Shown here piece after piece: positions 7,550 to 62,946 of a stretch of 64,000 nt of DNA (positions are counted from its first letter, which is position 1; every line of letters begins with the position of its first letter). Source of the stretch: Deltaproteobacteria bacterium (GTDB lineage: Bacteria; Desulfobacterota; Syntrophia; Syntrophales; Smithellaceae); NCBI GenBank assembly GCA_022710585.1, contig JAKLGV010000015.1, forward strand, positions 5,623 to 69,622. The letters run 5' to 3'. The notes under the pieces are model-generated. The model did no database searches, was not told the origin of the DNA, and saw only the letters and a list, made by a program, of their open reading frames with translations. The position numbers were made by a program, and so were the translations under genes.

Positions 7550-9547
7550 TCAGGCAATCTTCAGCCAGATGGCATCCATCCCCTCCAGGGTAATTTCCAG
7601 CAGGCCGTCAACGATGGTGTAGGTCCTGCCGGATAACAGACAGGTGACCGTTCCGTTAAACGCGTGGCGCAGTTTTTTCTGGTGCGCTCCGGCAAAAAGC
7701 TGATTGCGGCTCAGGAAATCGAACACCACCAGCCGTGATGTCTCCGCGCGGTTCACCGCCGCGAAATAGACGCCGTCCTGGGCCGTCTGCCCCAGAGCGT
7801 CCGTCCCGTCCGTTACATAGCGCAAAACGCCCAGACAGTCGGGATCGGGGGCGAAGAACACGCCGTAACCGGTCTGCATGGCATCCGCCTCGCGGCGGAG
7901 ACGGGCCAGCGTCCGGTAATACGAAGTCAAATCGTGCGGCGCTTCACGGAACGTTTCCCTGTTGAAGGGATCCAGAAAACCTTGCATCCCCCGTTCATCC
8001 CCGTAATAAACGCAGGGAACGCCCGGCAGACAGAATTGCAGCGTCGCGGCCAGGCAATGCCGCCGGGCGCCTTTTTGATTCTGGGCGGCGGTAATAACAA
8101 ATGAAGCTTGCTGTTCCCGGGAAAGTTCGTGCGGATCAATGCGTGTGCTCAGGGCGGTGCGCACCCGCTCGATGTCATGCGAGGAAAGCAGATTGGTCAG
8201 CGCGTAGTACATCGGCGGGGGATAGCTGGCGGCCTGATCCACTAGCAGATGCTTCAAATCGTCGGCATCCGCTTTCCCGTTGAGGAACCCGACCAGGGCG
8301 TTGCGCAGCGGATAGTTGGTGACCGAATCGAGCATCCGCCCTAGCGCATACTGTCGCTTGGCGCCGTAGCTGTATTTCGTGGTCGCGTCTTCCCAGACCT
8401 CGCCCAGCACCACCGCTTCCGGATTCGTTTCGCGCGCGGCCTGATAGATCATGGCCAGCACATCGTCCGGCAGTTCATCAGCCACATCCAGACGGTAGCC
8501 TCCGGCGCCGGCTTTCAGCCAGTGCCGGATAACGCTGTTCTCGCCGGTGATGATATACTGCTGCCAGGCCGGTTCGCCTTCGTTGACCTCGGGCAGCGAT
8601 TGAAATCCCCACCAGCACCGGTAGTGATCAGGATAATCCTTGAAATCATACCACGGGTAATACGGCGAATCTTTGCTGTTGGCGGCGCCGACGACGTCAT
8701 AGCGGCCTTCGCGGTTGAAATAAATGCTGTCGGAACCGGTGTGTGAAAACACGCCGTCCAGCATGACGCGGATGCCCCTCTCGGCGGCCTTGCGGCAGAG
8801 CGACTTAAAATCTTCGTCCGTGCCCAGCACCGGATCGATTTTGAAATAGTCGGCGGTGTTGTAGCGGTGATTGGACGCGGCTTCAAACACCGGATTCAGG
8901 TAAAGGACGGTGATGCCCAGGCCTTGCAGATACTCAAGGGAATCTTCGATGCCTTTGAGCGTGCCGCCGAAGTAATCACATGGGCTGTAATCCTTTTCGC
9001 CCGGCAGCGCTGTATAAAGCGGCGTCTCCTCCCACTTTTCGTGATAAATCACGTTTCTTCCCCGGGAACGGTGATAAGCGATGCCCTTTTGAGCCGTCCG
9101 GTCTTTGCTCCGGCGGAAGCGATCGGGAAAGATCTGGTACATGACGCTTTTTTGAAACCAGCGGGGTACGGCGAATGCCGGATCATAAGCGGTCAGTTGA
9201 TAGGATGGCGGCTGGGCGCTGTACACACAGCCGACACCCTCGGTGCGGCTGCCCTGCGCGCCGTAATAGCAGATTTTGCCGCCGATATTGACGGTGAAAT
9301 AATACCAGTAAACCGCGGGCACGGACGGTGTCGTGATGTCAACTTCCCAGTAGTCTTCCGATTGCCGCATGAGGTGCTGAGCGTGAAACTCTTTTCTGTA
9401 CAGGCAAAGATAAACGCTGTCCACATTCTCCAGACGCGCCCTGAAACGCAGCCTGACCGGCGTACCGGCCGTGACGGCGCCGACCGGATCGCGGAATAAA
9501 TCCAGTGATGAGTCATGCAGCAGCTCATTGCGGTAATTGATCAGCAT
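7550..9547 (-). CDS. glycoside hydrolase family 13 alpha-glucan hydrolase (neopullulanase/cyclomaltodextrinase-like)
   Basis: The four GH13 conserved regions are present: DGVFSHTG, GYRLDVADEL, VLGEVWED and LLSSHDIER. The start is set at ATG 9547 (RBS GGGAGGGAGGGG), downstream of the glgP stop at 9570. Confidence 0.85.
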   Translation of the reverse strand: MLINYRNELLHDSSLDLFRDPVGAVTAGTPVRLRFRARLENVDSVYLCLYRKEFHAQHLMRQSEDYWEVDITTPSVPAVYWYYFTVNIGGKICYYGAQGSRTEGVGCVYSAQPPSYQLTAYDPAFAVPRWFQKSVMYQIFPDRFRRSKDRTAQKGIAYHRSRGRNVIYHEKWEETPLYTALPGEKDYSPCDYFGGTLKGIEDSLEYLQGLGITVLYLNPVFEAASNHRYNTADYFKIDPVLGTDEDFKSLCRKAAERGIRVMLDGVFSHTGSDSIYFNREGRYDVVGAANSKDSPYYPWYDFKDYPDHYRCWWGFQSLPEVNEGEPAWQQYIITGENSVIRHWLKAGAGGYRLDVADELPDDVLAMIYQAARETNPEAVVLGEVWEDATTKYSYGAKRQYALGRMLDSVTNYPLRNALVGFLNGKADADDLKHLLVDQAASYPPPMYYALTNLLSSHDIERVRTALSTRIDPHELSREQQASFVITAAQNQKGARRHCLAATLQFCLPGVPCVYYGDERGMQGFLDPFNRETFREAPHDLTSYYRTLARLRREADAMQTGYGVFFAPDPDCLGVLRYVTDGTDALGQTAQDGVYFAAVNRAETSRLVVFDFLSRNQLFAGAHQKKLRHAFNGTVTCLLSGRTYTIVDGLLEITLEGMDAIWLKIA

Positions 9548-48961: not shown

Positions 48962-50854
48962 TCAAGGTTTGGGATCAGCCATCATATCCTTCGGCGGCTC
49001 GAACTGCTTATTGTAGATCAGCGGCGGGAAGCCCGGATAAACCGTAACCCGTTGCGGCATGTCCTTTTCCATGGTATCGAATAGGGTACGATTGGGCAGG
49101 ATCACGTTGTTCGTCCGGACATATTGATCCCAGAGAACGACCAGCTCCTTAAGCTTGTCGGGGCGTTCTTGGGCGAGGTCCTTTCGCTCGGTGGGATCCG
49201 CCGCGAGATTGAAGAGCTCCCAGTCGCTCTTGCCGAACGGCTTGATCTGCCAGCGCAGCTTCCAGTCGCCCTGCCGCACCGCGCGGTTGCCGAAGACCTC
49301 CCAGGCGAGGTGATCATCCTTGGTTCGAGGAGAATCCGTCTGGCCGGCCAGCATCGGAACCCAGGATTTGCCGTAGAGCGGGGGCACCTCGTGACCCTGG
49401 TACGTCTTAGGATAGCTGGTACCGGCGACTTCAAGCAGCGTCGGCATCAGATCGGCCACATGCATCACCCCGTGGTTGATGCTCCCCTTGGTCCGTTTGA
49501 CGACCGGGCCACTGACTAGGAGAGCGTTGTGGATGCCGCCCTCGGCCAGCCAGCCCTTGTACTGGCTGAAGGGGGTCATCGAGACCTGCGCCCACATCGG
49601 GCCATAGCCGACCCAGGTGCCCGGCTCGCCCCACGCATTGGGATGGGTCCAAGACCAGTGGATCGCCGCGAAGAGGTTGTCGCGCGAACCCTGGGCACCC
49701 GCGATCATCCCGAAAAGGTCGGTGCCCTCGGCGCCATTGTCGCCGAAGCAGATGAAGATCGTGTTCTCGTATTCACCGATTTCCTTGAGGTGGTCGATAA
49801 GCCTGCCGACGTGGAAGTCCATGTTCTCCACCATGCCGGCGTAGAGTTCCATCTTCTTGCCGAGTATGTAGAGGGGTGCGGGGGCAAGCACGATCGGATC
49901 GGGAATAAACCACATCCGTTCAGCAAGTTCCGTGTCCGGCGGCATGATGCCCATTTCCTTCTGGCGCTTAAGCCTCTCGGCCCTTACCGCATCCCAGCCC
50001 TTGTCATATTCTCTAGGGTGCCGGTTGCGCCAGTCCCTCGGCAGGTGGTACGGGTCGTGCGGCGCCTGATGCGCCACGTAGGCAAAGAAGGGCTTGCCGT
50101 CGCCGCGGTTGGCGTCAATGTATCCGATCAGCTTGTCGGTATAAGTCTTTGTTGCGTAATAGTCCTTGGGAAGCTTCGTCAGGTAGCGGCCATCCTCGGT
50201 GAAGAGCGAATTCGGCGACACGGCGCTGGCGCTCTTCATGTCCCAGTAGCTGCCGCCGCCGTCGAGCAGCGAGAAGTCACGCTCGAAGCCGCGTGCGCGC
50301 GCTATCTGGTCAGGTTTCTTGCCCATGTGCCACTTGCCCGCCATGTAGGTGTGATAGCCGGCATCCTTGAGGAGCTGGGGTAGCGTGACGACACGGTTGT
50401 TGAGGTTGCCCTCGTAGCCGTCCACGCCGCGCTGGTTGGGCGCGATCATCTCGTTCATGTTACCCAGGCCATTGAGGTGGGTATCAACACCGGAAAGCAG
50501 CATAGATCGCGTGGGTGAAGAGCTCGCGTGCGTGTAGAAGTTTGTGAAGCGCACGCCATCCTTGGCCAGCGAGTCAAGGTTCGGCGTTTTGATTTCGCTG
50601 CCGAACGAGCCCATGTCGGAAAATCCCATGTCATCAGCGAGAATGATGACGATGTTCGGACGTCTTGCGGGCGACTTTCCCTCAAACCGCTCCGGCGGTG
50701 CGGCGTTCCTGACATCAGACACATTAATTTTCTTAGTCTGAGGCTCCGGAATCGGAAGTGAGTTCCGATCCTGTTCCGTCTGCGCTGCGGCTGTGGCGAT
50801 GCAGGCCGTGCCCAGTGCCAGACCTAACACGCTATATGCCATTTTCTTCTTCAT
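48962..50854 (-). CDS. periplasmic arylsulfatase-family enzyme, Ser-type
   Basis: Signal peptide ...ATAAAQ. IVIILADDMGFSD. The FGly motif is S-S-P-T-R (Ser112, nt 50519..50521) rather than C-x-P-x-R. GKWHMG is present. Confidence 0.9.
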   Translation of the reverse strand: MKKKMAYSVLGLALGTACIATAAAQTEQDRNSLPIPEPQTKKINVSDVRNAAPPERFEGKSPARRPNIVIILADDMGFSDMGSFGSEIKTPNLDSLAKDGVRFTNFYTHASSSPTRSMLLSGVDTHLNGLGNMNEMIAPNQRGVDGYEGNLNNRVVTLPQLLKDAGYHTYMAGKWHMGKKPDQIARARGFERDFSLLDGGGSYWDMKSASAVSPNSLFTEDGRYLTKLPKDYYATKTYTDKLIGYIDANRGDGKPFFAYVAHQAPHDPYHLPRDWRNRHPREYDKGWDAVRAERLKRQKEMGIMPPDTELAERMWFIPDPIVLAPAPLYILGKKMELYAGMVENMDFHVGRLIDHLKEIGEYENTIFICFGDNGAEGTDLFGMIAGAQGSRDNLFAAIHWSWTHPNAWGEPGTWVGYGPMWAQVSMTPFSQYKGWLAEGGIHNALLVSGPVVKRTKGSINHGVMHVADLMPTLLEVAGTSYPKTYQGHEVPPLYGKSWVPMLAGQTDSPRTKDDHLAWEVFGNRAVRQGDWKLRWQIKPFGKSDWELFNLAADPTERKDLAQERPDKLKELVVLWDQYVRTNNVILPNRTLFDTMEKDMPQRVTVYPGFPPLIYNKQFEPPKDMMADPKP

Positions 50855-51616: not shown

Positions 51617-52375
51617 CTAAAAGAGAACGCCGACACCGACCGTCAATCCGGAAAATCTTACATTCAGTTCGTTGTCCTCATTGTTATCCCCTTCGAACTT
51701 ATATCCCACTGTGCGATAGCCTAAGCGCATAGCTATTGTATCCGTGAACTTGTATTGAATCTGCGGGAATAGTTCATAGACGAGTTCGGAATCGCCGCCG
51801 CCACCGATGGCTAAGGTCGGATTAAACACCAGTCCTTTGATCATCGAAGGAAGTATGGGGATGCAGGGCCTGACAACGAACATGGGATCAACTAAGTCAT
51901 AGCTTTTACTCCTTTTGCCAAAACCATGCACGTCCAGATCGTTTTCCATATTCAAAATTCGCACGCCCACCATCAGGTCGAATGTCTGACCTTCGTAAAA
52001 ACCGTCAATCTGGTATCCCACGGCCGTCTCATTGATCATGACATCAGAATCGAAATCCACACGTGCCGGTTGGTCTTTAGCGTCTAACTCATCGGTGCTC
52101 AACGACATATAGTCAAACTGATGCCAGAAGAGGAACCGGTTGTACTGAATCACGCCGAGAAATGATCCCGCAAATTCAGCGGCGTCAAAGACATCGCTGG
52201 CCGACCTGTCGAAATCATATTCTTCGCCATTGACCGTCACATCGCCCTCAACCCCGACATACCAAAGATACGGCATGAGTTCGAACTTCCAACCTTTCGG
52301 CTCAGCCGCAAAACTCGTTGCGCCAAAGGTTAACAACAACAGTGCAATGAGGAAACTCCCCATAATCTTTTTCAT
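51617..52375 (-). CDS. outer-membrane beta-barrel protein
   Basis: Signal peptide ...ATSFA/AEP, alternating strands and a terminal GVGVLF. Confidence 0.65.
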   Translation of the reverse strand: MKKIMGSFLIALLLLTFGATSFAAEPKGWKFELMPYLWYVGVEGDVTVNGEEYDFDRSASDVFDAAEFAGSFLGVIQYNRFLFWHQFDYMSLSTDELDAKDQPARVDFDSDVMINETAVGYQIDGFYEGQTFDLMVGVRILNMENDLDVHGFGKRSKSYDLVDPMFVVRPCIPILPSMIKGLVFNPTLAIGGGGDSELVYELFPQIQYKFTDTIAMRLGYRTVGYKFEGDNNEDNELNVRFSGLTVGVGVLF

Positions 52376-52456: not shown

Positions 52457-54751
52457 TTAACGACGACCACGACCACCACGGCCTCCTCTGCCGCCGAAGC
52501 TTCTTGAGCTGCTTCCCGAACTGCCCGAACTGAACGACCGTTGATACTCCTGCGAACGCTGGTAGGTCTGCTGACCCCGCTGCCGGTTTTGCGCCTCCTG
52601 CTGAACCCGCTGCATCTGTTCGCTTCCGCCTGCACGCACCTGAGATGATTCACGCTGCTGTGCCTTAGACTGGTATTGCTGCTGTGCGGATTGCCGCGAT
52701 TCACTCGCCGAGGCAGGCTTCTGGACACTGTTCCAGCTTCCGTCTTCATATTTCTGCCAGCCGGAACCTGTGTTCTTATAAACATTGCCGTCATGAGCGG
52801 CATACATATCGCCGCTCCCCGTCTTGCCCTTGACGGTCGTACCGTGATCGGTAGACACACCGACAGCCTTCCCGCCAGTGGACGTCCGCACGGAACCAAC
52901 CGTCCCCCGGTCATCAGAATAATGCCGCGTGTAAGCGCTCTCTCCTCCCTTCCTGACCACGGAACTGCCCCACGAGGCGTATTCGTTGGAGCGCTGCCTG
53001 GTGGCTGCTGACGCCCCTGTGTAGGGATTGTAGGCCCGTCCCGCTGCTGCGCTGCCATAGGGCGTGGAAACCGAGGCGGTCCGCGCATACGTCCCTGTGT
53101 AAGGATTATAAGAAGCTATTCTCGTTGCCGAGCTGTAAGGACCGTACGCCGTATGGGAGACGCCATAGGCCCCCGTGGGTGAATGGTAATGAGCCATATA
53201 ACCGTAGGTGTATGGCGTCGGATAGTACACCGGATGATGATAGACGGGATGAACAACAACGTAGGGTGGATAATAATATCCTGTACCACCCGCGATAATG
53301 ACGCCGGTGGCCACACCGATGATGAATGCGCCCGTGTATCCTGCCGTGTAGCTAGCCTGAACATAGCCGTCAGACGTCGTCACCTGGGTCACATAGGTAA
53401 CGTTGTAAACCGGTGAACTGGGCGGAATGGTATAGATGACCTGAGGAACGGAAGGGGCTGTCTGCCAGGGCCCATTCGGATTTGAGGAAACGAACCAGAT
53501 CCCCTGATAACAGAGGTAGTAGAGATTGTCCGCTTTAATCACGGTCTGCTGTGTATTCTTGATGTAATAAAGCTGTGTCCCTTCTATGCGAACAAGTTGC
53601 GGTTCACCGACGTAAACGACCTTGACCGTTTTAGCCGCCTCAGCCGGATTGACAATCACGGTTGTCGGAACCTGCGCCAGGAGAACGGCATCCTTGGCTT
53701 CTTCAGTACCCGGAACGGAGGCGCGCACCTGGCCGGCAGGGCTTGACGGGGGAATATGGGCAAAATCGGCAGGCAGGTTGGGTGTCGCAAATCTCCATGG
53801 CCCGGCCAGACTGCCGGAGCTGAACCAGCGGCCCGCCGTCAGGAAGTAATAGGTGTTTGTTGCCGTATGAAAAAAAACATAGTTGATCGTATTGGTCGCG
53901 TATTTGAGCCTGGTTCCCGGAATTTGCGCATAGGCAGGCTGTCCGTTAAAGAGAATCATCTCGGCCGGACTGGTGCTGTAAAAAACAGCAGGAACCGTGG
54001 CATTTGCCTTTACGGGAGGAGGAATGAATTTCTTCAGGTGTGACCATTCCGGACTCCTGGCCAACTGGTTCATCGCGTTGGGCAGTTTCTTCGCCAATGT
54101 CCATGGTCCCTGCAGGGCCGCCGCCGTCAGCCACTGTTCGCCGGCCAGCAGATAAAACATCGACGTTTGCGGATCGATAAACAGCGGCCAGCGCGTATTG
54201 ATGACGTATTGGAGCTGTCCGTTGAGGATGGAGGCCTGCACCGGCTGTCCATCGACATCCAGAAGGATGGCAGGCTTATAACTGACATAAATAACCGGCG
54301 GATCATTCTTCAGTTGTACGCCGGGCATCGACTCCGGCTTCGGGATGCTGGCCACAAGCTGATGCAAACCAATCGTGACGGCGGGAGGCATGAATTTCCT
54401 GACCAGTTGATCCATCTTTGCCGCGTTTGTTGGATCCAGAGAAGGGAATTTGGTTTCCTTGATCCTGAGGTTATCAATCAATACCGTTTTTCGATCATTA
54501 TCGACGGTTGTCCGACCGCGCATTTCCACAATACCCACGGCCGGTTTCCCGCCTTTGGGCGTAATAGAAATGGCCATTCTCCAATCAAGTTCCTGGAAAT
54601 CTTTCCAGTTATCAACCTGGGGCTGGTATATGATTAACGTGTTCCCGTTTTCATTACGCAGACGCGGCCAGCCGTTATCTTGCGCTATACTCGCCATCGA
54701 TGATAACAGGACCAATATCAAAGAAGCGATGATGCATTTAATAATCTTCAT
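52457..54751 (-). CDS. exported repeat protein with a Tyr/Pro-rich and Gln/Arg/Ser-rich C-terminus ending in an RGG box
   Basis: The start is set at ATG 54751 (RBS GGAAGGAG). Signal ...SSMASIAQ. Three modules of about 75 aa each end in GPW (GPWTLAKKLP, GPWRFATPNLP, GPWQTAPSVP). A hydrophobic GAFIIGVATGVIIAGG segment, YYPPYVVVHPVYHHPVYYPTPYTYGY, and the tail GGRGGRGGRGRR. Confidence 0.7.
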   Translation of the reverse strand: MKIIKCIIASLILVLLSSMASIAQDNGWPRLRNENGNTLIIYQPQVDNWKDFQELDWRMAISITPKGGKPAVGIVEMRGRTTVDNDRKTVLIDNLRIKETKFPSLDPTNAAKMDQLVRKFMPPAVTIGLHQLVASIPKPESMPGVQLKNDPPVIYVSYKPAILLDVDGQPVQASILNGQLQYVINTRWPLFIDPQTSMFYLLAGEQWLTAAALQGPWTLAKKLPNAMNQLARSPEWSHLKKFIPPPVKANATVPAVFYSTSPAEMILFNGQPAYAQIPGTRLKYATNTINYVFFHTATNTYYFLTAGRWFSSGSLAGPWRFATPNLPADFAHIPPSSPAGQVRASVPGTEEAKDAVLLAQVPTTVIVNPAEAAKTVKVVYVGEPQLVRIEGTQLYYIKNTQQTVIKADNLYYLCYQGIWFVSSNPNGPWQTAPSVPQVIYTIPPSSPVYNVTYVTQVTTSDGYVQASYTAGYTGAFIIGVATGVIIAGGTGYYYPPYVVVHPVYHHPVYYPTPYTYGYMAHYHSPTGAYGVSHTAYGPYSSATRIASYNPYTGTYARTASVSTPYGSAAAGRAYNPYTGASAATRQRSNEYASWGSSVVRKGGESAYTRHYSDDRGTVGSVRTSTGGKAVGVSTDHGTTVKGKTGSGDMYAAHDGNVYKNTGSGWQKYEDGSWNSVQKPASASESRQSAQQQYQSKAQQRESSQVRAGGSEQMQRVQQEAQNRQRGQQTYQRSQEYQRSFSSGSSGSSSRSFGGRGGRGGRGRR

Positions 54752-54831: not shown

Positions 54832-55314
54832 TTATTTATCCGGAACCAGCGGTATCTGAGAAGCCACTTCGTATCGGATGACCGAGCGGATCTTGTTTTC
54901 GATCTGCAGATAACGGGCGACCTTGGTAGCCGGCAGGATCTTATTCAGCTTAGCTGCATAGGATTTCGTCATCTTCACCTCGTCATCCTGAAGCGCGATA
55001 AATTCTTTCGTTATTTTTTTCGCTGCTTTATTGTCCATTTCAGATTTCCATGCCTCGGCGTAAGCATTGATCAGCGCTAACGCGCGTTGATTGATCTTGG
55101 CGAGGTCCTTCTGATAGGCGTCATAGACAGGCCAGAAAGCCTTGGACTCTGATTCCGTAAGCTGCATGTTGACTGCCACAACCAGTTTCTTGTCCGCCTT
55201 GACCTTGTCGCGCAGGATCTGCATGTTGTCTGATGAAGCGCTCTGGGCAAATGCCGGAACCATCATGCACAATATAACAGCCACTGCCATAACCATCTTG
55301 ATCATTTTCTTCAT
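54832..55314 (-). CDS. hypothetical periplasmic all-helical protein
   Basis: Signal peptide ...MMVPAFA/QS. A helical, Lys/Ala-rich mature part. A Spy/CpxP-like fold is only a guess. Confidence 0.5.
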   Translation of the reverse strand: MKKMIKMVMAVAVILCMMVPAFAQSASSDNMQILRDKVKADKKLVVAVNMQLTESESKAFWPVYDAYQKDLAKINQRALALINAYAEAWKSEMDNKAAKKITKEFIALQDDEVKMTKSYAAKLNKILPATKVARYLQIENKIRSVIRYEVASQIPLVPDK

Positions 55315-55352: not shown

Positions 55353-56060
55353 CTATATCCAGCCCAGTTCTTTGAAACGCTTTTCATACACGTCAGCTAT
55401 TTCCTTTGCGGTTTGTTCGGCACGCCCTTCCAGTGTACTGCTGCCGCTTTTTTCCCCGTACACTTTAACTCCGGTGGAGACGACGAGCCCCAATGGATTT
55501 TTTGTGGCAATTAAGACCGCCGCTCCCACAGCCGCACCGGGAGATTTTTTTTTGCCGGTATCCGTTGAGCCGGAACCCAATTTTCGTAAACCGTGAGCCG
55601 TGACCTGAAAACCTTCAACCGCCACCTTCAGGTTGGAATCACCGGCCCCTAACCCAATCGCCACACGCTTGACGGCACTTCCCTCATCAAATGAAAGGAG
55701 ATAGCCCCGAACGACGATATCGTTGATTTGCATGATGGATCCTTCCATCACATGCTCTGCGGGCATTCCCATATCACGGATATTCTTAACCAGCTCCGTC
55801 GCGATCTTGGCACCCAACTTTCGACCTAGTGCAATCTGCTCTCCGGACTGGGGTGTGGCATCCTGTGTATATTGACCGGCGAGCTCCGAGTCCGCCTGGA
55901 CGTCTGCGGGGGTGGCCGCAAAGTCGTACACCCAAATGTGAGCAGGCCGGGGAAGTTGTTCTTTCACGAGTTGCTCACGGCTGGTGACTTTTGTCGATGC
56001 GCATCCTGCGACGATCAGCAGAACCAACACACATAAAGTAAAACGATAACGATTGATCAT
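55353..56060 (-). CDS. hypothetical lipoprotein (DUF4410-like)
   Basis: Lipobox LLIVAGCAS. The family name is from memory only. Confidence 0.5.
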   Translation of the reverse strand: MINRYRFTLCVLVLLIVAGCASTKVTSREQLVKEQLPRPAHIWVYDFAATPADVQADSELAGQYTQDATPQSGEQIALGRKLGAKIATELVKNIRDMGMPAEHVMEGSIMQINDIVVRGYLLSFDEGSAVKRVAIGLGAGDSNLKVAVEGFQVTAHGLRKLGSGSTDTGKKKSPGAAVGAAVLIATKNPLGLVVSTGVKVYGEKSGSSTLEGRAEQTAKEIADVYEKRFKELGWI

Positions 56061-56081: not shown

Positions 56082-56915
56082 TTATTTGGGAAACAAAAAC
56101 GTCAATTGTACCCGCATGCCCCAGCCCTCCGGTCCGTTATCCGGTGACGCCGCCCAGTACTTTCCTCCCAGAGAAAACTGGAGAATCTGGGGACCAATCT
56201 TGAAAAGTTGTGACACCTGTGCAATCACCGGGACAGACCAGTGATTTTCTTCCCAGTCATAGCTGGACTCGGTTGTGACCCCCAGGGTCGTCTTGGTTTT
56301 TGTAATGTAACTGAAAATCGGTTGCAGGCTGGTCAGATTAATATTGGACCGGGTATCTTCGCCGCCCAGTGACCAGATGTGACTGGTGAGCAAGCCGATA
56401 GTCCATCCCCCCATCTGCTTCAGAGCAACGGCTGTCGGCCCCAGTCCCCACTGTTCGCCTCCGAGGACATCGTGGGATGCCGTCGGCAGCAGCTCGACCG
56501 GCCCTACACCCCAGATCAATCCGCCTGCGGTGGGCGCTTTCGGCGAAAAGAACTGACTGGCCGTGATATCGCCAAGACCCGCTTCCTCCATATCCTTCAT
56601 CGGAATGTCATGCTGATCTTTATACGGAATAATGGTGCGGGTGATGATGTTCCATTCATCATTCATACTGAAGGGAATGACCGGCTGTACATTCACGAGA
56701 TTGACGTACCCGTCGTCTTCCGGACCGTAATTTTTGTCATAGTTGTACTGCACCGGCACGCTGATGAGCGCGGCTACCGGGTTGGCCAACTTCTTGGCCA
56801 GTTCCGTAGCATCATCTTTTTCGTCTTGCGCCCATGATGATGGAACAATCATGGTAACCGCTAAAATAATCGTGAGAATTTGTAATATCTTTTTTATGCT
56901 CAATGTTGTTTTCAT
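56082..56915 (-). CDS. outer-membrane beta-barrel protein ('transporter' family-like)
   Basis: The start is set at ATG 56915 (RBS AAGGGAG). Signal ...VPSSWA/QD, then LANPVAALISVPVQYNYD, and terminal QLTFLFPK. Confidence 0.55.
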   Translation of the reverse strand: MKTTLSIKKILQILTIILAVTMIVPSSWAQDEKDDATELAKKLANPVAALISVPVQYNYDKNYGPEDDGYVNLVNVQPVIPFSMNDEWNIITRTIIPYKDQHDIPMKDMEEAGLGDITASQFFSPKAPTAGGLIWGVGPVELLPTASHDVLGGEQWGLGPTAVALKQMGGWTIGLLTSHIWSLGGEDTRSNINLTSLQPIFSYITKTKTTLGVTTESSYDWEENHWSVPVIAQVSQLFKIGPQILQFSLGGKYWAASPDNGPEGWGMRVQLTFLFPK

Positions 56916-56944
56916 CAAAACACTCCCTTTCATTGATTTACTTT

Positions 56945-57277
56945 TTAATGCCGATAAGTTCCTTCTCTCATTTTCTGCAGAGGCAATATTCCAACCATCG
57001 GTTCGTTGTCGCCGATCTTCACTTTCGTTTTTTCGCTCAAAACCTCAATAGCGCCGAGAAGCGCGCTGCCGTCATTGGACCGCAGGTAATGCACCAGGCT
57101 CTCCTGATCTTCCCATTCAAAAAAAACAAGGAAAACGTCATCATCGTTCGTGTCCCTGTTGATACTGATTTTTTGGAGACCTTTCTTTTTGCGAATCACG
57201 GGAACAAGGGCCAGCAATGTCTGATAGAGCTCCTGAAAACTTGTTCGTTTTGCTTTGACCTCGATTGTAAGTTCCAT
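56945..57277 (-). CDS. small ABM (antibiotic-biosynthesis-monooxygenase)-like / ferredoxin-fold protein
   Basis: 110 aa, no signal peptide. The VFLVFFEWEDQESLVHYLRS pattern resembles ABM domains. Confidence 0.4.
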   Translation of the reverse strand: MELTIEVKAKRTSFQELYQTLLALVPVIRKKKGLQKISINRDTNDDDVFLVFFEWEDQESLVHYLRSNDGSALLGAIEVLSEKTKVKIGDNEPMVGILPLQKMREGTYRH

Positions 57278-57453
57278 GTTGTCTCCTTTTGGATTGTTCT
57301 GCTTCTACTGATTATTTTTGACTACATTTGCTCAAACGGTATGGACGGCAGGCCCGTATTTACAGGCCTGCTTCAGATCGTCCAATCAGCATTCCAAAGA
57401 TGGAAATTAAAAGATTCCATCTTAATATGAACGTTATGATATTTTTTTGTCAG

Positions 57454-58134
57454 TTACCTCACGACACCATTGACATCATCAATGAATTGAACAGTGCTTC
57501 GGGACCAGTACCAGAAGGTATCCTTGGCCGATTTTGACTTGGAGAACCTTTCGTGAAAGGCCGCCTGCTTCAGATCAACGGCCATGCCAATCACGTCATT
57601 GGTTGTGGAATCGAGCCACATCACCTCAGCGCTGGTTTCACCTCCACCCGTCCAGCCTCCGGTTACGCCCCTCTTGACCAGACTCACAGCCGCACCGACC
57701 GGAACGATCGTCGTGATAGCGCTGAGCACGGGCTTGCTCTGTGTGACATTCGTGATAGCAATGCGAATCCTCGCCACATCCGGGCCTGGCTCGCTGACCA
57801 TCTCGTACTTGCCTTTGAATGCCGCCACCATTTCATTGTTGAAGGTATCAGCCATTTCTTTCATAAACTCGGGATCGACAGCCTTGTTCTCCGATTTGTC
57901 AGAAACATAGAAAACGACGCTGTCCACCATGAATTTTTTATACTTCTTTAAATCCACACCCGGTTTGATCCAACGCAGTTTGGCTCCTCCTTCAGGTCCC
58001 GGTTTCAACTGCTTATAAACCTCCGGCCCCCCGAGAAATCCGGAAAAGGGTGGATTGCTGTCTGCAAATACGGTTGAAACAGTGAATAAAAAAACAATTG
58101 CACTGGCCAAAATAACCTTTACTGATGATTTCAT
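57454..58134 (-). CDS. exported protein (DUF3313-like)
   Basis: The start is set at ATG 58134 (RBS AAGGAGG). Signal ...TVSTVFA/DS. The FSGFLGGPEVYKQLKP...DLKKYKKFMVDSV pattern resembles DUF3313. Confidence 0.55.
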   Translation of the reverse strand: MKSSVKVILASAIVFLFTVSTVFADSNPPFSGFLGGPEVYKQLKPGPEGGAKLRWIKPGVDLKKYKKFMVDSVVFYVSDKSENKAVDPEFMKEMADTFNNEMVAAFKGKYEMVSEPGPDVARIRIAITNVTQSKPVLSAITTIVPVGAAVSLVKRGVTGGWTGGGETSAEVMWLDSTTNDVIGMAVDLKQAAFHERFSKSKSAKDTFWYWSRSTVQFIDDVNGVVR

Positions 58135-58168
58135 AACAACCTCCTTAATTTTTTTATTCTTGAGATAT

Positions 58169-58184
58169 TTCAATAATCATTCCA
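58169..58184 (-). promoter_or_regulatory. sigma54-like -24/-12 element with a non-canonical -12
   Basis: The minus strand reads TGGAATGATTATTGAA (TGG-N9-TTGA, with sigma54 spacing). It ends 35 nt before ATG 58134 and has a near-identical twin at 61561..61576. Confidence 0.5.
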
Positions 58185-58281
58185 AGATGGAAAACAAGAG
58201 GAAATAAATTATAATAGTTTGATATTATTAATTATTTAAGAATGTAGCGTTTTTCTGAAGAAACTTAAAAGGAACAACAAT

Positions 58282-58314
58282 CCTCAATATTTTGTGGATT
58301 CGTAATATATTGAG
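58282..58314 (-). promoter_or_regulatory. candidate enhancer (UAS) for the adjacent sigma54 activator, copy 1
   Basis: The minus strand reads CTCAATATATTACGAATCCACAAAATATTGAGG. An 8-bp inverted repeat CTCAATAT/ATATTGAG is separated by 16 nt. It is 29/33 identical to 61431..61463 and lies 98 nt upstream of the TGG of the -24 element. Confidence 0.55.
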
Positions 58315-58341
58315 AGTCATTTATGCGGGTTGATAGAAATT

Positions 58342-61233
58342 TTAAGGACGTGTAATACCCAATTTCTTTATGCGGAATCGAAGGGTGCTGGGATTAAGTC
58401 CAAGAATGACAGCCGCGCCACCTTCTCCATCAATCTTCCAGCGGGTTTTTTGAAGCACTTTCAGAATATGTTCCCGTTCCGTTGTTTCCATATCTTTAAG
58501 CGATACTTTTCCCTTGTCGATTGTCTCACGTTCCAGGCTGTCTATAATATTAAGCTCCGGTCCGGAACTGATGATGACGGCCCTTTCGATGACGTGTTCC
58601 AACTCTCTTACATTACCGGGCCAATGGTAGGCTTGAAGTTTCTGCAACGTGTTCCTGGACACAATCTCAATCTGCCGGCCATATTTCTGATTGTACTTTC
58701 CGACAAAATAATTGACCAGCAACGGAATGTCTTCCAACCGCATACTCAAGGGAGGAATCGAAACGGGAAAAACGTTTAGCCTGTAAAAGAGGTCTTCCCG
58801 AAAACGCCCGTTGCGCACGTCAGCCTTTAAATCCCGGCTGGTCGCGGTAATCACCCTCACATCAACTTTGATGGTCTTTGTGCTTCCCAATCTCTCAAAT
58901 TCCCCGTCCTGCAGCACCCGCAGGAGCTTGGTCTGGAGAGCCAGGGGCATTTCTCCGATTTCATCCATGAAGAGCGTCCCGCCATGGGCAACCTCGAAAC
59001 GACCGACTTGCGTCGCATGAGCGCCTGTAAAAGCGCCTTTCTCCCGTCCGAAAAGCTCGCTCTCGATCAGGTTTTCCGGAAGAGCGGCACAGTTGATCGT
59101 GACCATGGGCTTGTCCTTTCGGGAACTCATTTCATGAATGGCATGAGCCACCATTCCTTTGCCGGTTCCTGTGTCGCCAAGGATGAGCACCGTGGCATCG
59201 GTTGGGGCAACCTGTTGAGACCGGAAGAGAACATACTTGATGGCATCGCTTTCTCCAATAATGGTTCCTAAGCCCAGTTCCATCTTGATTTCATTGCGGA
59301 GATAAACATTCTCTTCTTCCAGCCGGGTCTTCAAGTTGTTGATTTCCGCCAATTGCTGCTGAAGTTGATTTTCCATCTTCCTGCGCTCGGTGATGTCCTG
59401 GGCGAATACCGATAGTCCGAACACAACATCATCGTGCTTGAGGGTGTTGATATTCAAACGCAGCGTCCGGCCTTGAGCGGAAGTCTGGTAATCCGTTATG
59501 AAAGACCCTTCCTTCAGTGCGCGACGGTAGAAAGCATACCACTTCTGGGCAAACTCCTCTGTAGGGAGGAGATCATCAGGATTCATACCGATTTCGATAT
59601 GAAGGCCGGATCCGTGCAGGAAGTATTCGGAAAGGCCGCGGTTGAATACGACAAGACCGAAGCGCTCGGGATCCACCGACCAAATCAAGTCGGGCGTACT
59701 GTTGATCAATGAAGAGAGAAGTGTCTGCGACTCGTTTAATTTAAGTTCCGTCTCTTTGCGTTCGGTAATGTCCAAAGACAGTCCCAAGAGACGAATCGTC
59801 TCACCGGTTGATTGGAGATATCGTTGCCCGCGGGCAACTATCCAGCGAATGGTTCCATCGGAAAGGATGATCCGGTAATCGCAATGAAGGGTCTCTCCGG
59901 ATTGCAGCGTGTGTGCCACCTCCCGGTGGACGCGGTCCCGATCCTCGGGATGAATCACACGGAAGTAACGTTCATAAGTAATTTCTTCATCGGGTGCAAA
60001 TTGAAATATCTCCCGGCTCTTCGGCGAGACCCAGACTTTTTTCGTGTCGACATCCATGATCCATAGCCCTGCATCCACGGCTTCCGTAATCAGGCTGATA
60101 CGCTCTTCCCGTTCACGCAGTAACACATCCGTCTGCTTTCGGAGGATCGCATTGGCAAAAACTTCTCCTACAAGTCGCAGCCGGGGAATGAGCCTTTCCG
60201 GCCAGATCCGTTCTGCACGCGTTGACACAAAAACACAGGACCCCAGCGTATGGCCTCCCATTCTAAGGGGTACGGCTAGAATCGATTTCACATTCATATT
60301 TAGGCAAAGACGTCGTTCAGCAAGAGCATCCGGCGGCAAATCTTCAACACGGTTGATGATCACATCTTTCCCTGCAATCAATTGCCCGAAATACCAGGGA
60401 AGTTGTTCCGTGGTTGCGGATGGGGGGGGTGAATCAGCACCTGACACCTGGTAATTATAAGTGGTGCTCAGACGATTCGATTCATTGCTGAACAAGCCGA
60501 TGGTGCATCGGTCCACTTGAAAAAACTCGACCAGTGTGCGGAGCCATTTTCGGATGGTATCATCAACATGATCGGATGGAATATTCACAAAATCGGAGGA
60601 AAGATTGGAAATCAATCCTTCAAAGCGGAGTTGCTCATCGATCTGCAGCCTGCTCTTATTACGCTCGATGGCATTGACGATCATTTCACCGAGCAGTTGA
60701 ACTCTTGAGATTAGCTCCTGCGGCCATGCACACTCATTGTTTACCGCGTTGATATTGATCACATAATCGACGGATTCGTCAATGATGATCGGGATACTGA
60801 CAATGGAGCGGATTCCCCATTGCATCAGGATTTGCCTGTCTCCATCCGCCTCAGCCGGCAGATCGTCCAGATTCGAAATGACCAGAATCTCACGTTTTTG
60901 TATCAGCTTTTCAAAAATCCATGGATTGATCGCTATGGGGAGTTCTTCCCCTACAGGAACCGGCGGCAAATTTTCTCTGGCGGCAACATGGGCGATCTTC
61001 CATTTGGTCTTGTCCGGAAATCCTTCCAGCAATGCGCAACGGTCACACCCGAAGAATTCGTAGATCAGTTTGAGAGACCTCTCAATCTCTTCATCCATCT
61101 TATCGGGAGATATATTCATAAAGCGGGCCGATAAATCCGATATCAGTTGCTCAAATTCCAGACGATCCAGCAGCGCTTTATCGTCCTGCAAATGATCTGA
61201 TGGAAGATGATCGTTGATATCTGTTTTTTTCAT
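58342..61233 (-). CDS. sigma54-dependent transcriptional activator with GAF and PAS sensory domains
   Basis: AAA+ core with Walker A GDTGTGKG, the GAFTGA loop ([15 protein letters not shown]), and a C-terminal Fis-type HTH ([21 protein letters not shown]). The N-terminal 640 aa or so carry GAF-like and two PAS-like modules. Confidence 0.92.
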
Positions 61234-61430
61234 ATTTTTAAATCTCTAATGATTTAAATGTATTATTGTTTAGTCATCCATTAGTATTCAAATTTCTCTT
61301 TTTCAATGATGTAAATATTATAACATTATTTATTTTCAAGAAAAGTTACATACATAGCATCATCAATAATGAATTAAGAATCGTTGAATTCAATTCCATC
61401 AAAGAATCAAAATATTTTCAACATAAAAAT

Positions 61431-61463
61431 CTTAATATACTACGAATCCGCAATATATTGAGG
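61431..61463 (+). promoter_or_regulatory. candidate enhancer (UAS), copy 2
   Basis: CTTAATATACTACGAATCCGCAATATATTGAGG lies exactly 98 nt upstream of the TGG at 61561. Confidence 0.55.
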
Positions 61464-61560
61464 CTCATCGTTTTCTTAAATCTTATTTAGAAATATCTTC
61501 ACAATTATATTAACTAATAATATCATATAATTACAGTTTTTTTACGCGTATTTTTCGTTT

Positions 61561-61576
61561 TGGAATACTTATTGAA
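61561..61576 (+). promoter_or_regulatory. sigma54-like -24/-12 element, twin of 58169..58184
   Basis: TGGAATACTTATTGAA ends 36 nt before ATG 61612. Confidence 0.5.
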
Positions 61577-61611
61577 TTAGCTGAAGCAGAATTACTAAAG
61601 GTATCTGAAAA

Positions 61612-62946
61612 ATGGTCTGGAATCGACAGTACGTCATCAAGAGTTACGTGAAGTCATCGCTGTGGCTCGTGCCTTTTTTCGCTGTGCTGGTGTATATGGT
61701 CGTCATTCGCCTCACGCGCTTCATGGGCGGCTGGCTTCTGCAAACCGGACGAATCAATGAAGCGACGGCATTCTTTGGTTACTCCATGGCCGGAGCAAGG
61801 TCGCTGCTCGAAACGATCGTTACAATAAACCTTTCTTTCATCGTCTTCACATTCGGTTCGCTGCTGGTAGCCATTCAAGTCGCCGGCGGACAGTACACAC
61901 CTCGTATCATTGCGACGACATTGCTGCGCGACAACGCCATCCGGTTCACCGTCGGTTATTTCGTTTTTACCCTATTGTTCACCCTGAGGGTGTTAACCAT
62001 GATGGGCGATGTTGTTGTTTATCAATTCCATTGCTTTGTTGCAGGGGTACTGGGATTGATTTCGATTGTGGTATTTCTTTATTTGATTGACCATGCAGCC
62101 CGATTGCTTCGCCCCGTAAGCATCGTGCAGCGAGTGGGACAGTTCGGCATGGCGGTCATCCAGGACGTCTATCCGGAAACCAGTAAATCACCGCACCGTA
62201 TCGAATCTTCCGGCAATGGCATATCCCCGGCCCGGATCGTAACGAACACAGACACCTCGGGAATCGTGCTCGCCTTAGATATCAAGGGATTGGTCAGGCA
62301 AGCACAACGTGCCAACGGTATGATTGAATTTGTACCTCATGTTGGCGATTTCATAGCCGTCGATGAACCCCTGTTTCAATTGTATGGAGGAGCCACTTCC
62401 ATTGACAACCTTCACTTGAGGGCATCTGTTGCGCTGGGGTCCGAGCGAACTCTGGAGCAGGATCCTACTTTTGCCTTCCGCATCCTGGTCGATATTGCCA
62501 GTAAAGCATTGTCCCCGGCCATTAATGATCCGACCACGGCCGTGCTCGCCGTCGACCAGCTTCACCGCCTGCTCAGAATGGTTGGACTACGGCATATTGG
62601 TAATGAGAAGATTTGCGATAAAACAGGTGAATTGAGGCTCTTATTCCGGACACCGAACTGGGAGGACTTCGTCCATCTGGCCTGCACTGAAATTCGACAT
62701 TACGGTTCGGGCAGCATTCAGATCACGCGGCGGATGCGTTCCATGCTGGATAATCTCATCCAAACCCTGCCGGTTCATCGCCATTCGGAATTACACCAGC
62801 AACTGCAGTTCCTCGACCGTGTGATCGACGAACATTACACGTTGCCAGAGGACCGGGCGCTGGCCCGGATCGCGGATCCGCAGGGCTTAGGCGGTTCGGT
62901 GGGTGTTCAAGCGGCAACCGATGGGACGGAAAAAGTCAGTCAATGA
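61612..62946 (+). CDS. DUF2254-family membrane protein
   Basis: Four N-terminal TM helices (SSLWLVPFFAVLVYMVV..., ...FTFGSLLVAIQVAGGQYTPRI) and a soluble C-terminal domain with the ALSPAINDPTTA motif typical of DUF2254. Confidence 0.7.
   Translation: MVWNRQYVIKSYVKSSLWLVPFFAVLVYMVVIRLTRFMGGWLLQTGRINEATAFFGYSMAGARSLLETIVTINLSFIVFTFGSLLVAIQVAGGQYTPRIIATTLLRDNAIRFTVGYFVFTLLFTLRVLTMMGDVVVYQFHCFVAGVLGLISIVVFLYLIDHAARLLRPVSIVQRVGQFGMAVIQDVYPETSKSPHRIESSGNGISPARIVTNTDTSGIVLALDIKGLVRQAQRANGMIEFVPHVGDFIAVDEPLFQLYGGATSIDNLHLRASVALGSERTLEQDPTFAFRILVDIASKALSPAINDPTTAVLAVDQLHRLLRMVGLRHIGNEKICDKTGELRLLFRTPNWEDFVHLACTEIRHYGSGSIQITRRMRSMLDNLIQTLPVHRHSELHQQLQFLDRVIDEHYTLPEDRALARIADPQGLGGSVGVQAATDGTEKVSQ

Follow-up and report, generated by a model that had tools for sequence, protein, structure and literature searches.

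Can a control region that lacks the C at position -12 still be a promoter of sigma-54? The question is raised by a 64,000-nt stretch of DNA from a Smithellaceae bacterium (assembly GCA_022710585.1, contig JAKLGV010000015.1, positions 5,623 to 69,622; the whole stretch is hereafter called the window). In this window the gene for a sigma-54 activator with a GAF-GAF-PAS sensor carries on either flank a module consisting of an enhancer, an IHF-like site and a -24/-12-like element, the left module preceding a gene for a DUF3313 lipoprotein and the right module a gene for a DUF2254 membrane protein. The bacterium is uncultured and occurs in assemblies from anaerobic digester, wastewater and sediment. 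After comparison with orthologous loci and with enhancer matches from metagenome contigs, we consider it very likely that the two modules are copies of one standard enhancer-dependent control region of sigma-54, served by the activator encoded between them.

The two modules had been described in an earlier note made from the sequence, and all four elements listed there (enhancer, IHF-like site, promoter-like element and start codon) were present at the coordinates given (Table 1), with the same internal spacing in both modules. Left and right regions can be aligned without gap from enhancer through promoter, and the distance from the start of the enhancer to TGG is 130 nt in both. The identity of 29/33 between the 33-mers at 58282-58314 (minus strand) and 61431-61463 (plus strand) held on re-reading, and the 33-mer pattern, with up to 3 mismatches allowed, matched only these two sites in 64 kb and none in 100 shuffled sequences. 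The symmetric element that the note had read as a single inverted repeat is real, but it is better seen as two 14-bp palindromic boxes with the consensus CTCAATATATTGCG / CGCAATATGTTGAG, 18 bp apart from centre to centre, giving four half-sites. The left enhancer begins 27 nt past the activator stop codon, and the right one is found upstream of the activator gene, 198 nt from its start codon and in divergent orientation. The left IHF-like site agrees exactly with WATCAANNNNTTR and the right one with a single mismatch. The core proposed as TGG-N9-TTG is in fact TGG-N8-TTG, that is, a GG doublet at -25/-24 followed in the GG-N10-G register, the same as that of TGGCA-N6-TTGC promoters, and TGGAATGATTATTGAA and TGGAATACTTATTGAA are the sole exact matches of their shared pattern in the window. 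The start codons at 35 nt (DUF3313, ATG 58134, also the start in one public ENA gene call) and 36 nt (DUF2254, ATG 61612) past the promoter-like element were likewise found as described. In both modules the leader length and the ribosome-binding site are compatible with transcription starting about 12 nt past the -12 element; the predicted start sites are about 58158, with a 24-nt leader carrying AAGGAGG, and about 61587, with a 25-nt leader.

The activator, a protein of 963 residues, has the features of a bacterial enhancer-binding protein: an AAA+ Sigma54_activat domain (PF00158, 3.9e-72, residues 658-824) with an intact GAFTGA loop at residue 733, AAA_lid_14, GAF and PAS_3 domains, and a C-terminal HTH_8 domain (residues 915-958), for which the enhancer is the putative cognate upstream activating sequence (UAS). 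It stays under every NCBIfam equivalog cut-off, including those for NifA, FhlA and NorR (384, 377 and 351 bits versus cut-offs of 529, 830 and 476, respectively), the similarity being confined to the shared AAA+ region; it can thus be assigned to an unnamed family of sigma-54 activators. Its closest relatives in reference genomes belong to metagenome-assembled genomes labelled Desulfobacteraceae and Syntrophaceae, and database names such as 'formate hydrogenlyase transcriptional activator' are generic names given by the source. No second AAA+ activator was found in the window. Facing the activator gene, a sigma-70-like pair TTAAGA-16-TATATT (9/12; 61452-61479, minus strand) overlaps the right enhancer; such matches occur at chance frequency in this A/T-rich region, and if this one were real, binding of the activator at the right enhancer could repress its own gene.

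The same layout was found at orthologous loci (L001, L085-L088, L091, L092 and L211), the activators of which are 57-81% identical to that of the window. In all of them the 32-bp enhancer is located 30-60 nt past the activator stop codon, followed by an IHF-like site 40 nt before TGG and by TGGAAY-N5-TTG(A/G), the TGGAAY element being 96-100 nt (or 88-89 nt) past the enhancer, and the module usually precedes the ABM gene, then DUF3313 and other envelope genes. The half-sites change in pairs across loci, CAATAT/ATATTG versus CAACAT/ATGTTG (CTCAACAT...ATGTTGAG in L001, CTCAATAT...ATATTGAG in the window), as would be expected of a symmetric protein-binding site. Sister activators of 47-54% identity (L003, L089 and L090) go with a different palindrome, CCGATAT...ATATCGG, and with the canonical promoters TGGCACGAATCCCGCT, TGGCACAAACCTGGCA and TGGCACGTATTTGGCA, which read TGGCAC-N5-(CCGC/TGGC) and are situated at the same distance, before ABM or DUF3313. 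The variant element of the window therefore occupies the position of a textbook sigma-54 promoter.

We then scanned metagenome contigs with the enhancer pattern alone, so that no promoter was presupposed. In the flanks of all enhancer matches TGG-N8-TTG occurred 52 times within 285 nt, and 40 of these 52 occurrences fell at 94-102 nt; many matches lay between a homologue of the activator gene, which they followed directly, and a homologue of ABM. For the statistics of the architecture we used the 45 unique modules of the variant class, the enhancer consensus of which is CTCAATATATTGCGGATCCGCAATATGTTGAG, with strong base preferences also at positions that the search pattern left unconstrained. 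The conserved part of the promoter in this set is GG plus TTG at the fixed GG-N10-G spacing, TGG being present in nearly all modules and AGG in a few. The IHF-like sequence WATCAANNNNTTR, with up to 1 mismatch, was found exactly at -40 from TGG in 23 modules, at -39/-38 in 4 and anywhere else in a further 4, indicating that the putative IHF site is locked in its position at -40. The distance from enhancer to TGG was 96-100 nt in 35 modules and 88-89 nt in 7; these two classes differ by one helical turn, as expected if looping needs matching helix faces.

About one fifth of the enhancer matches were false positives, and the remainder seem to be true sites. Approximately 16 of the first 80 (CCCAAYAC/TGCTG...TTGGG) lay within a strongly conserved coding sequence, rich in G+C and alignable over more than 200 nt, and were rejected (L098, L105, L106, L113-L115, L125, L129, L141, L142, L149, L154, L158, L160, L164 and L166). 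Three more (L110, L153 and L159) are NrdR-like, with CACAATATAYTGTG boxes just before an nrdR-like open reading frame (ORF) that starts MKCPYCSHSETKVIDSRE, and one (L093, about 1354-1600) is a tandem array of the 18-nt unit GGTTTCGTAACATATTGA and its variants, resembling a single enhancer box repeated. The activator boxes have nearly the same sequence as NrdR-type boxes, and at L102 and L132 CACAATATATTGTG boxes stand beside an activator or ABM gene. The enhancer, with a -24/-12 element about 100 nt further on, was also observed before transaldolase-like (L099, L112, L139, L165 and L147), DUF302-like (L100 and L144), BON-domain lipoprotein (L096) and AI-2E/PerM-type permease (L109) genes, all labelled by eye from the translations, and before the gene for a 64% identical homologue of the 773-aa secreted protein of the window (L124, L145 and L188).

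The base that follows TTG separates two classes of promoter. Among the 33 unique ABM-linked modules it is A in 12, G in 19 and T in 2, and C in none; the G at -13 of the expected GC is kept and the C at -12 is absent. In a second set with a slightly different enhancer (…GAGGTTCCACAAAATATTGAG) and without the genes of this operon, all 16 unique modules carry TGGCA-N6-TTGC, 97-102 nt past the enhancer, and intermediates at L099, L102, L112 and L165 combine TGGCACG at -24 with TTGA or TTGG at -12. Judged by the modules compared, the non-C base at -12 is a trait of the whole clade or promoter family and not a peculiarity of the window. When the 45 unique modules were placed on a rough neighbour-joining tree, parsimony required no fewer than 12 substitutions between A, G and T but not one to C, which is suggestive of repeated changes among the three bases that avoid C.

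How the window came to have two modules was examined with an nhmmer profile made from 44 modules of other loci only and searched against the window plus 3 kb beyond it (67 kb). It detected exactly two full-length copies, left at 58166-58317 (E 3.6e-20, 68 bits) and right at 61431-61579 (E 2.2e-15, 52 bits). The spacers between enhancer and promoter are 60% identical between left and right (shuffled sequences, mean 34%, maximum 52%), and either spacer is 30-56% identical to those of the other modules compared. A third, partial promoter copy in the gap between DUF3313 and ABM, where the ABM promoter is located as a rule, shares its flanks with the two full modules and carries an IHF-like TATCATAACGTTC at -45 and G in place of the -12 C; no enhancer was found within 130 nt of it, and in the profile search it gave only a weak match (E 5.6). 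All three promoters of the window have CT(C/G)AAG just before the predicted start, which the orthologues lack; this and the similar spacers fit copying within this lineage. A match to AATAT-N16-ATATT beyond the window (L081, 762-787), considered as a third site, was dismissed as a chance match at the start of a gene. The usual order elsewhere is activator-enhancer-promoter-ABM; the left copy would be the ancestral module of the widespread activator family, and the right copy and the partial third promoter look like lineage-specific duplications. In the closest relative (L211, 81% identical) the order is activator-module-ABM-DUF3313, and DUF2254 adjoins activators of 71-74% identity at L137, L151, L167 and L169 without a module of its own; the module copy before DUF2254 and the order with DUF3313 first thus appear only in this lineage among the loci compared. 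The third copy looks like a remnant of the ancestral ABM promoter left after DUF3313 moved ahead, or else like an internal promoter that uses a distant enhancer; a related strain represented in a wastewater metatranscriptome (X1) has deletions of 5 nt and 1 nt inside it. The compact two-operon regulon proposed in the earlier note stands for these 67 kb, with the addition of a partial promoter before ABM, but not necessarily for the genome as a whole.

Table 1. Modules, activator gene and predicted target genes in the window
Feature	Position	Strand	Description
Activator gene	58342..61233	minus	963-aa bacterial enhancer-binding protein: GAF-GAF-PAS sensor, AAA+, Fis-type helix-turn-helix
Left enhancer (UAS)	58283..58314	minus	box 1 58301-58314 CTCAATATATTACG, 4-nt linker, box 2 58283-58296 CACAAAATATTGAG
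Left IHF-like site TATCAAACTATTA	58212..58224	minus	exact versus WATCAANNNNTTR; 40 nt before TGG
Left -24/-12 element TGGAATGATTATTGAA	58169..58184	minus	GG-N10-GA
Right enhancer (UAS)	61431..61462	plus	box 1 61431-61444 CTTAATATACTACG, linker, box 2 61449-61462 CGCAATATATTGAG
Right IHF-like site TATCATATAATTA	61521..61533	plus	1 mismatch versus WATCAANNNNTTR; 40 nt before TGG
Right -24/-12 element TGGAATACTTATTGAA	61561..61576	plus	GG-N10-GA
Third, partial promoter copy TGGAATGCTGATTGGA	57381..57396	minus	119 nt before ABM start; in 176-nt DUF3313-ABM gap
DUF3313 gene	57454..58134	minus	226 aa, signal peptide, Pfam DUF3313 1.2e-45; first gene of left operon
ABM gene	56945-57277	minus	left operon; Pfam
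283-aa secreted protein gene	56082-56933	minus	left operon
DUF4410 lipoprotein gene	55353-56060	minus	left operon; Pfam
160-aa secreted protein gene	54832-55314	minus	left operon
Large secreted protein gene	52457-54751/54778	minus	about 764-773 aa; last gene of left operon
DUF2254 membrane-protein gene	61612..62946	plus	Pfam DUF2254 1.1e-86; target of right module

The genes of the left operon are separated by 11-53 nt, except for the 176 nt between DUF3313 and ABM, and every product but ABM has a signal peptide or a lipobox. Homologues of the ABM, DUF3313, DUF4410 and large-protein genes also follow the same module at other loci. The C-terminal third of the large protein (773 aa; 52457-53000, minus strand) is a long low-complexity tail, rich in Tyr/Pro and then in Ser/Gly/Gln/Arg, with the end GGRGGRGGRGRR, and Pfam gave for this protein only a sub-threshold match to NACHT_sigma. 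A gene for an outer-membrane beta-barrel protein (51617-52375) lies 81 nt past the last gene of the operon, and sulfatase genes occur a few genes downstream of the module, in the window (48962-50854, minus strand) as well as at L088, L090 and L092. No RNA family of Rfam was found in the window.

From the established biology of sigma-54 we would propose the following course of activation. Each enhancer, 32 bp long and with its centre about 140 bp ahead of the predicted start, would be bound at its two 14-bp boxes by dimers of the activator, and an IHF-type protein would bend the A/T-rich spacer at about -60. The bend would bring the activator hexamer to the closed complex of RNA polymerase and sigma-54 on TGGAAT-N5-TTGAA, and ATP hydrolysis, gated by a signal at the GAF/PAS domains, would open the promoter. 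The left copy would then drive the DUF3313-ABM-...-DUF4410-... operon for secreted and envelope proteins, and the right copy DUF2254. The start sites and the dependence on sigma-54 are predicted on the same grounds.

The assignment to sigma-54 is supported by the GAFTGA activator, the orthologous layout, the recovery of 40 of 52 occurrences of TGG-N8-TTG at the expected distance and the canonical promoters at the homologous place. The points that weigh against it, or against the function of both copies, begin with the core element: in both modules of the window the -12 C is replaced by A, and the -24 flank reads AAT and not CAC. Moreover, neither rpoN nor an ihf gene nor another sigma-54 promoter of this bacterium was found in the available 67 kb, and it is the GAFTGA-bearing activator by itself that points to the presence of rpoN in the genome. 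TGGAAT-N5-TTGAA might then be read by a sigma factor of the sigma-70 family or of the extracytoplasmic function (ECF) type, with GGAAT or TTGAAA as the -35 hexamer, an explanation which might also draw on the downstream CT(C/G)AAG of the three copies in the window and on the sigma-70-like hexamer pairs that can be found in these A/T-rich regions. We regard it as very improbable: what is conserved over the 45 unique modules is GG and TTG at GG-N10-G, while CTSAAG is not kept in the orthologues; the sigma-70-like matches are no commoner than in shuffled sequences and stand at non-equivalent places in the two copies; and a -10 element following TTGAAA would run into the ribosome-binding site. TGGCA-N6-TTGC and the intermediates with TGGCACG and TTGA/TTGG also occur behind this enhancer at an equal distance, and the adjacent regulator is a sigma-54 activator, which together leave little room for the other sigma factor that the earlier note had kept in view. 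Still less credible is that the 33-nt element is a terminator or attenuator hairpin of RNA, or a mobile dispersed repeat. An inverted repeat 27 nt past the activator stop codon, with paired changes of its half-sites, might be expected of a hairpin; yet with folding energies of -8.0 and -7.3 kcal/mol (z-scores of -0.9 and -2.0) the predicted hairpins are weak, the search for a terminator-like site gave none, the right copy is downstream of no gene, and the palindromy of each 14-bp box, making four half-sites, is the signature of a DNA-binding site. As for a repeat, there are two copies only in 67 kb, and elsewhere, false positives aside, it hardly ever occurs without an activator gene, ABM or a -24/-12 element at the fixed distance.

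The right module is open to a doubt of its own, namely that only the left module is functional, the right one being a recent unused duplicate or DUF2254 being transcribed mainly from another promoter. None of the relatives examined has a module before DUF2254 (at L151 and L169 this gene follows an AI-2E-type permease gene without an enhancer), so that it is the intactness of the right copy that speaks for its function; the family profile gives this copy 52 bits and the left one 68, the right IHF-like site has 1 mismatch, and a sigma-70-like pair TTCACA-17-TATCAT is present at 61498-61526. RNA covering the locus came from one wastewater metatranscriptome, as assembled contigs of low depth without read ends, and one X1 contig of 156 nt (61557-61709, 4 mismatches), with a depth of about 3, starts 4 nt before TGG, 30 nt ahead of the start site predicted for DUF2254; it may represent DNA carry-over or transcription from further upstream. 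We nevertheless hold this explanation to be unlikely, since all elements of the right module are intact and spaced exactly as in the left one, a profile made without this copy still detected it with E 2.2e-15, its leader and ribosome-binding site are compatible with the predicted start, and DUF2254 is a recurrent neighbour of this activator family. A different proposal accepts sigma-54 and attributes the non-C base at -12 to an altered preference of sigma-54 across the lineage, in which case all its sigma-54 promoters should be alike. The absence of C from 33 of 33 unique ABM-linked promoters of the clade is in line with this, as is the lack of any canonical promoter in 293 kb of module-bearing loci, though these 293 kb hold few other candidate sigma-54 genes and the absence says little; within the window, matches to TGGCAC-N5-TTGCW with up to 2 mismatches occurred at chance level and inside genes. 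Against it, the related Thermodesulfobacteriota loci L003, L089 and L090 and the second class with the same enhancer type use canonical GC, and the sigma-54 consensus of Desulfovibrionales is tGGcacg/tTGCt (PMC4641369). We consider an altered preference rather doubtful.

Taking both modules, then, as sigma-54 control regions, how unusual is their -12 base? C is found at -12 in 96% of known sigma-54 promoters and helps to restrain basal, activator-independent transcription (PMC4551910). However, in an in vitro screen of 1.5 million templates with the sigma-54 polymerase of Pseudomonas putida, TTGAAT was one of the two -12 motifs obtained; TTGAAT templates were transcribed, the strongest templates having TTGCAT (PMC11997794). 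TTGA at -12 is therefore unusual and not unprecedented. What is new here is a whole natural promoter family that avoids C at this position. The deviation is not required by the regulon, since the sister clade uses GC before the same kind of target genes. The promoters of the family thus seem sub-consensus, deliberately or for historical reasons, with TGGAAY at -24 and A, G or T at -12, which probably makes them weak binders of sigma-54 that rely on enhancer and bend. As causes one may consider that selection favoured a promoter that is weak or locked in another way, that constraint was relaxed where enhancer and IHF assist strongly, or that sigma-54 itself is altered. That the absence of the -12 C was selected, and is not due to inertia, the weakened contact at -12 and the fork junction changing how the closed polymerase is held, is a tentative idea to which we give limited credence. 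If true, the promoter might be less occupied at rest behind the unterminated activator gene, or it might open more leakily or more quickly, and the family would be a natural, clade-wide counterpart of the -12 mutants of glnAp2.

Among known systems, IHF-assisted weak sigma-54 promoters such as Pu (XylR) and nifH (NifA) have their enhancer at about -100 to -150 and a sub-consensus core that depends on the architecture. The modules of the window resemble them in the upstream enhancer, the IHF-like site in between and the sub-consensus core, but in Pu and nifH the GC at -12 is kept, whereas here the weakness would include the -12 C itself, and the binding of IHF is predicted. Non-consensus -12 promoters (about 4% of those known, the glnAp2 -12 mutants and the TTGAAT class) likewise have TTGA(A/T) for TTGC(A/T); the difference is that here the deviation is family-wide, with no C in 33 and A, G and T all seen, and not that of an isolated promoter or mutant. 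FhlA, NifA and NorR share with the activator the order of GAF sensor, AAA+ and HTH_8, but the scores are far under their cut-offs, and targets and binding site are others. The arrangement of the locus is most readily compared with that of OrpR of Desulfovibrio vulgaris Hildenborough, a one-component PAS-type sigma-54 activator, the gene of which lies between two divergent target operons, each with a palindromic activator site, a requirement for IHF and a sigma-54 promoter, these two flanking units constituting the regulon (PMC8359166). In the window, too, the activator gene lies between two target units, each with a palindromic site, an IHF-like site and a sigma-54-like promoter. The two systems differ in the binding site (GGGCGYRTTTTGCGCCC for OrpR, two copies of CTCAATATATTGCG in the window), in the sensor (Fe-S PAS versus GAF-GAF-PAS), in the target genes and in the -12 C, which the window promoters lack; moreover, one unit of the window follows the activator gene in the same orientation, so that the units are not simply divergent from it.

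Within this known kind of system, the locus thus appears to represent an undescribed activator family with its own binding motif and a regulon of envelope proteins. The literature searched contained no paper that connects the box sequence with an enhancer-binding protein or treats DUF3313, DUF2254 or DUF4410 as sigma-54 targets. For a widespread unnamed family of GAF-PAS sigma-54 activators, hosted by anaerobic Thermodesulfobacteriota-type bacteria of digesters, sediments and wastewater, a binding motif and a promoter class can hereby be predicted, together with a core regulon that comprises the ABM protein, the lipoproteins with DUF3313 and DUF4410 and other secreted proteins, and in the window also DUF2254. 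Several domains of unknown function are placed in a common regulatory context linked to the cell envelope. To examine what the -12 C contributes to promoter locking, one could make use of these natural promoters with A, G or T at -12, together with the sister series that has C there and shares the enhancer type. The class would escape standard position-weight searches, which are tuned to TGGCAC-N5-TTGC.

One further locus with a related activator (L002, 54% identical) has no module downstream. Instead, the activator gene of L002 is followed (8990-9400) by two short ORFs, one resembling an antitoxin of the Phd/YefM type and the other a PIN toxin of the VapC type. The regions upstream of the activator genes of L002 (5760-5990) and L003 (3600-3830) are alike, both containing …GATYCGGATKTGAGTCYTCAC…AGATTAAGAT…AAAGG.TCTTG, and may represent a conserved promoter or leader of that activator clade.

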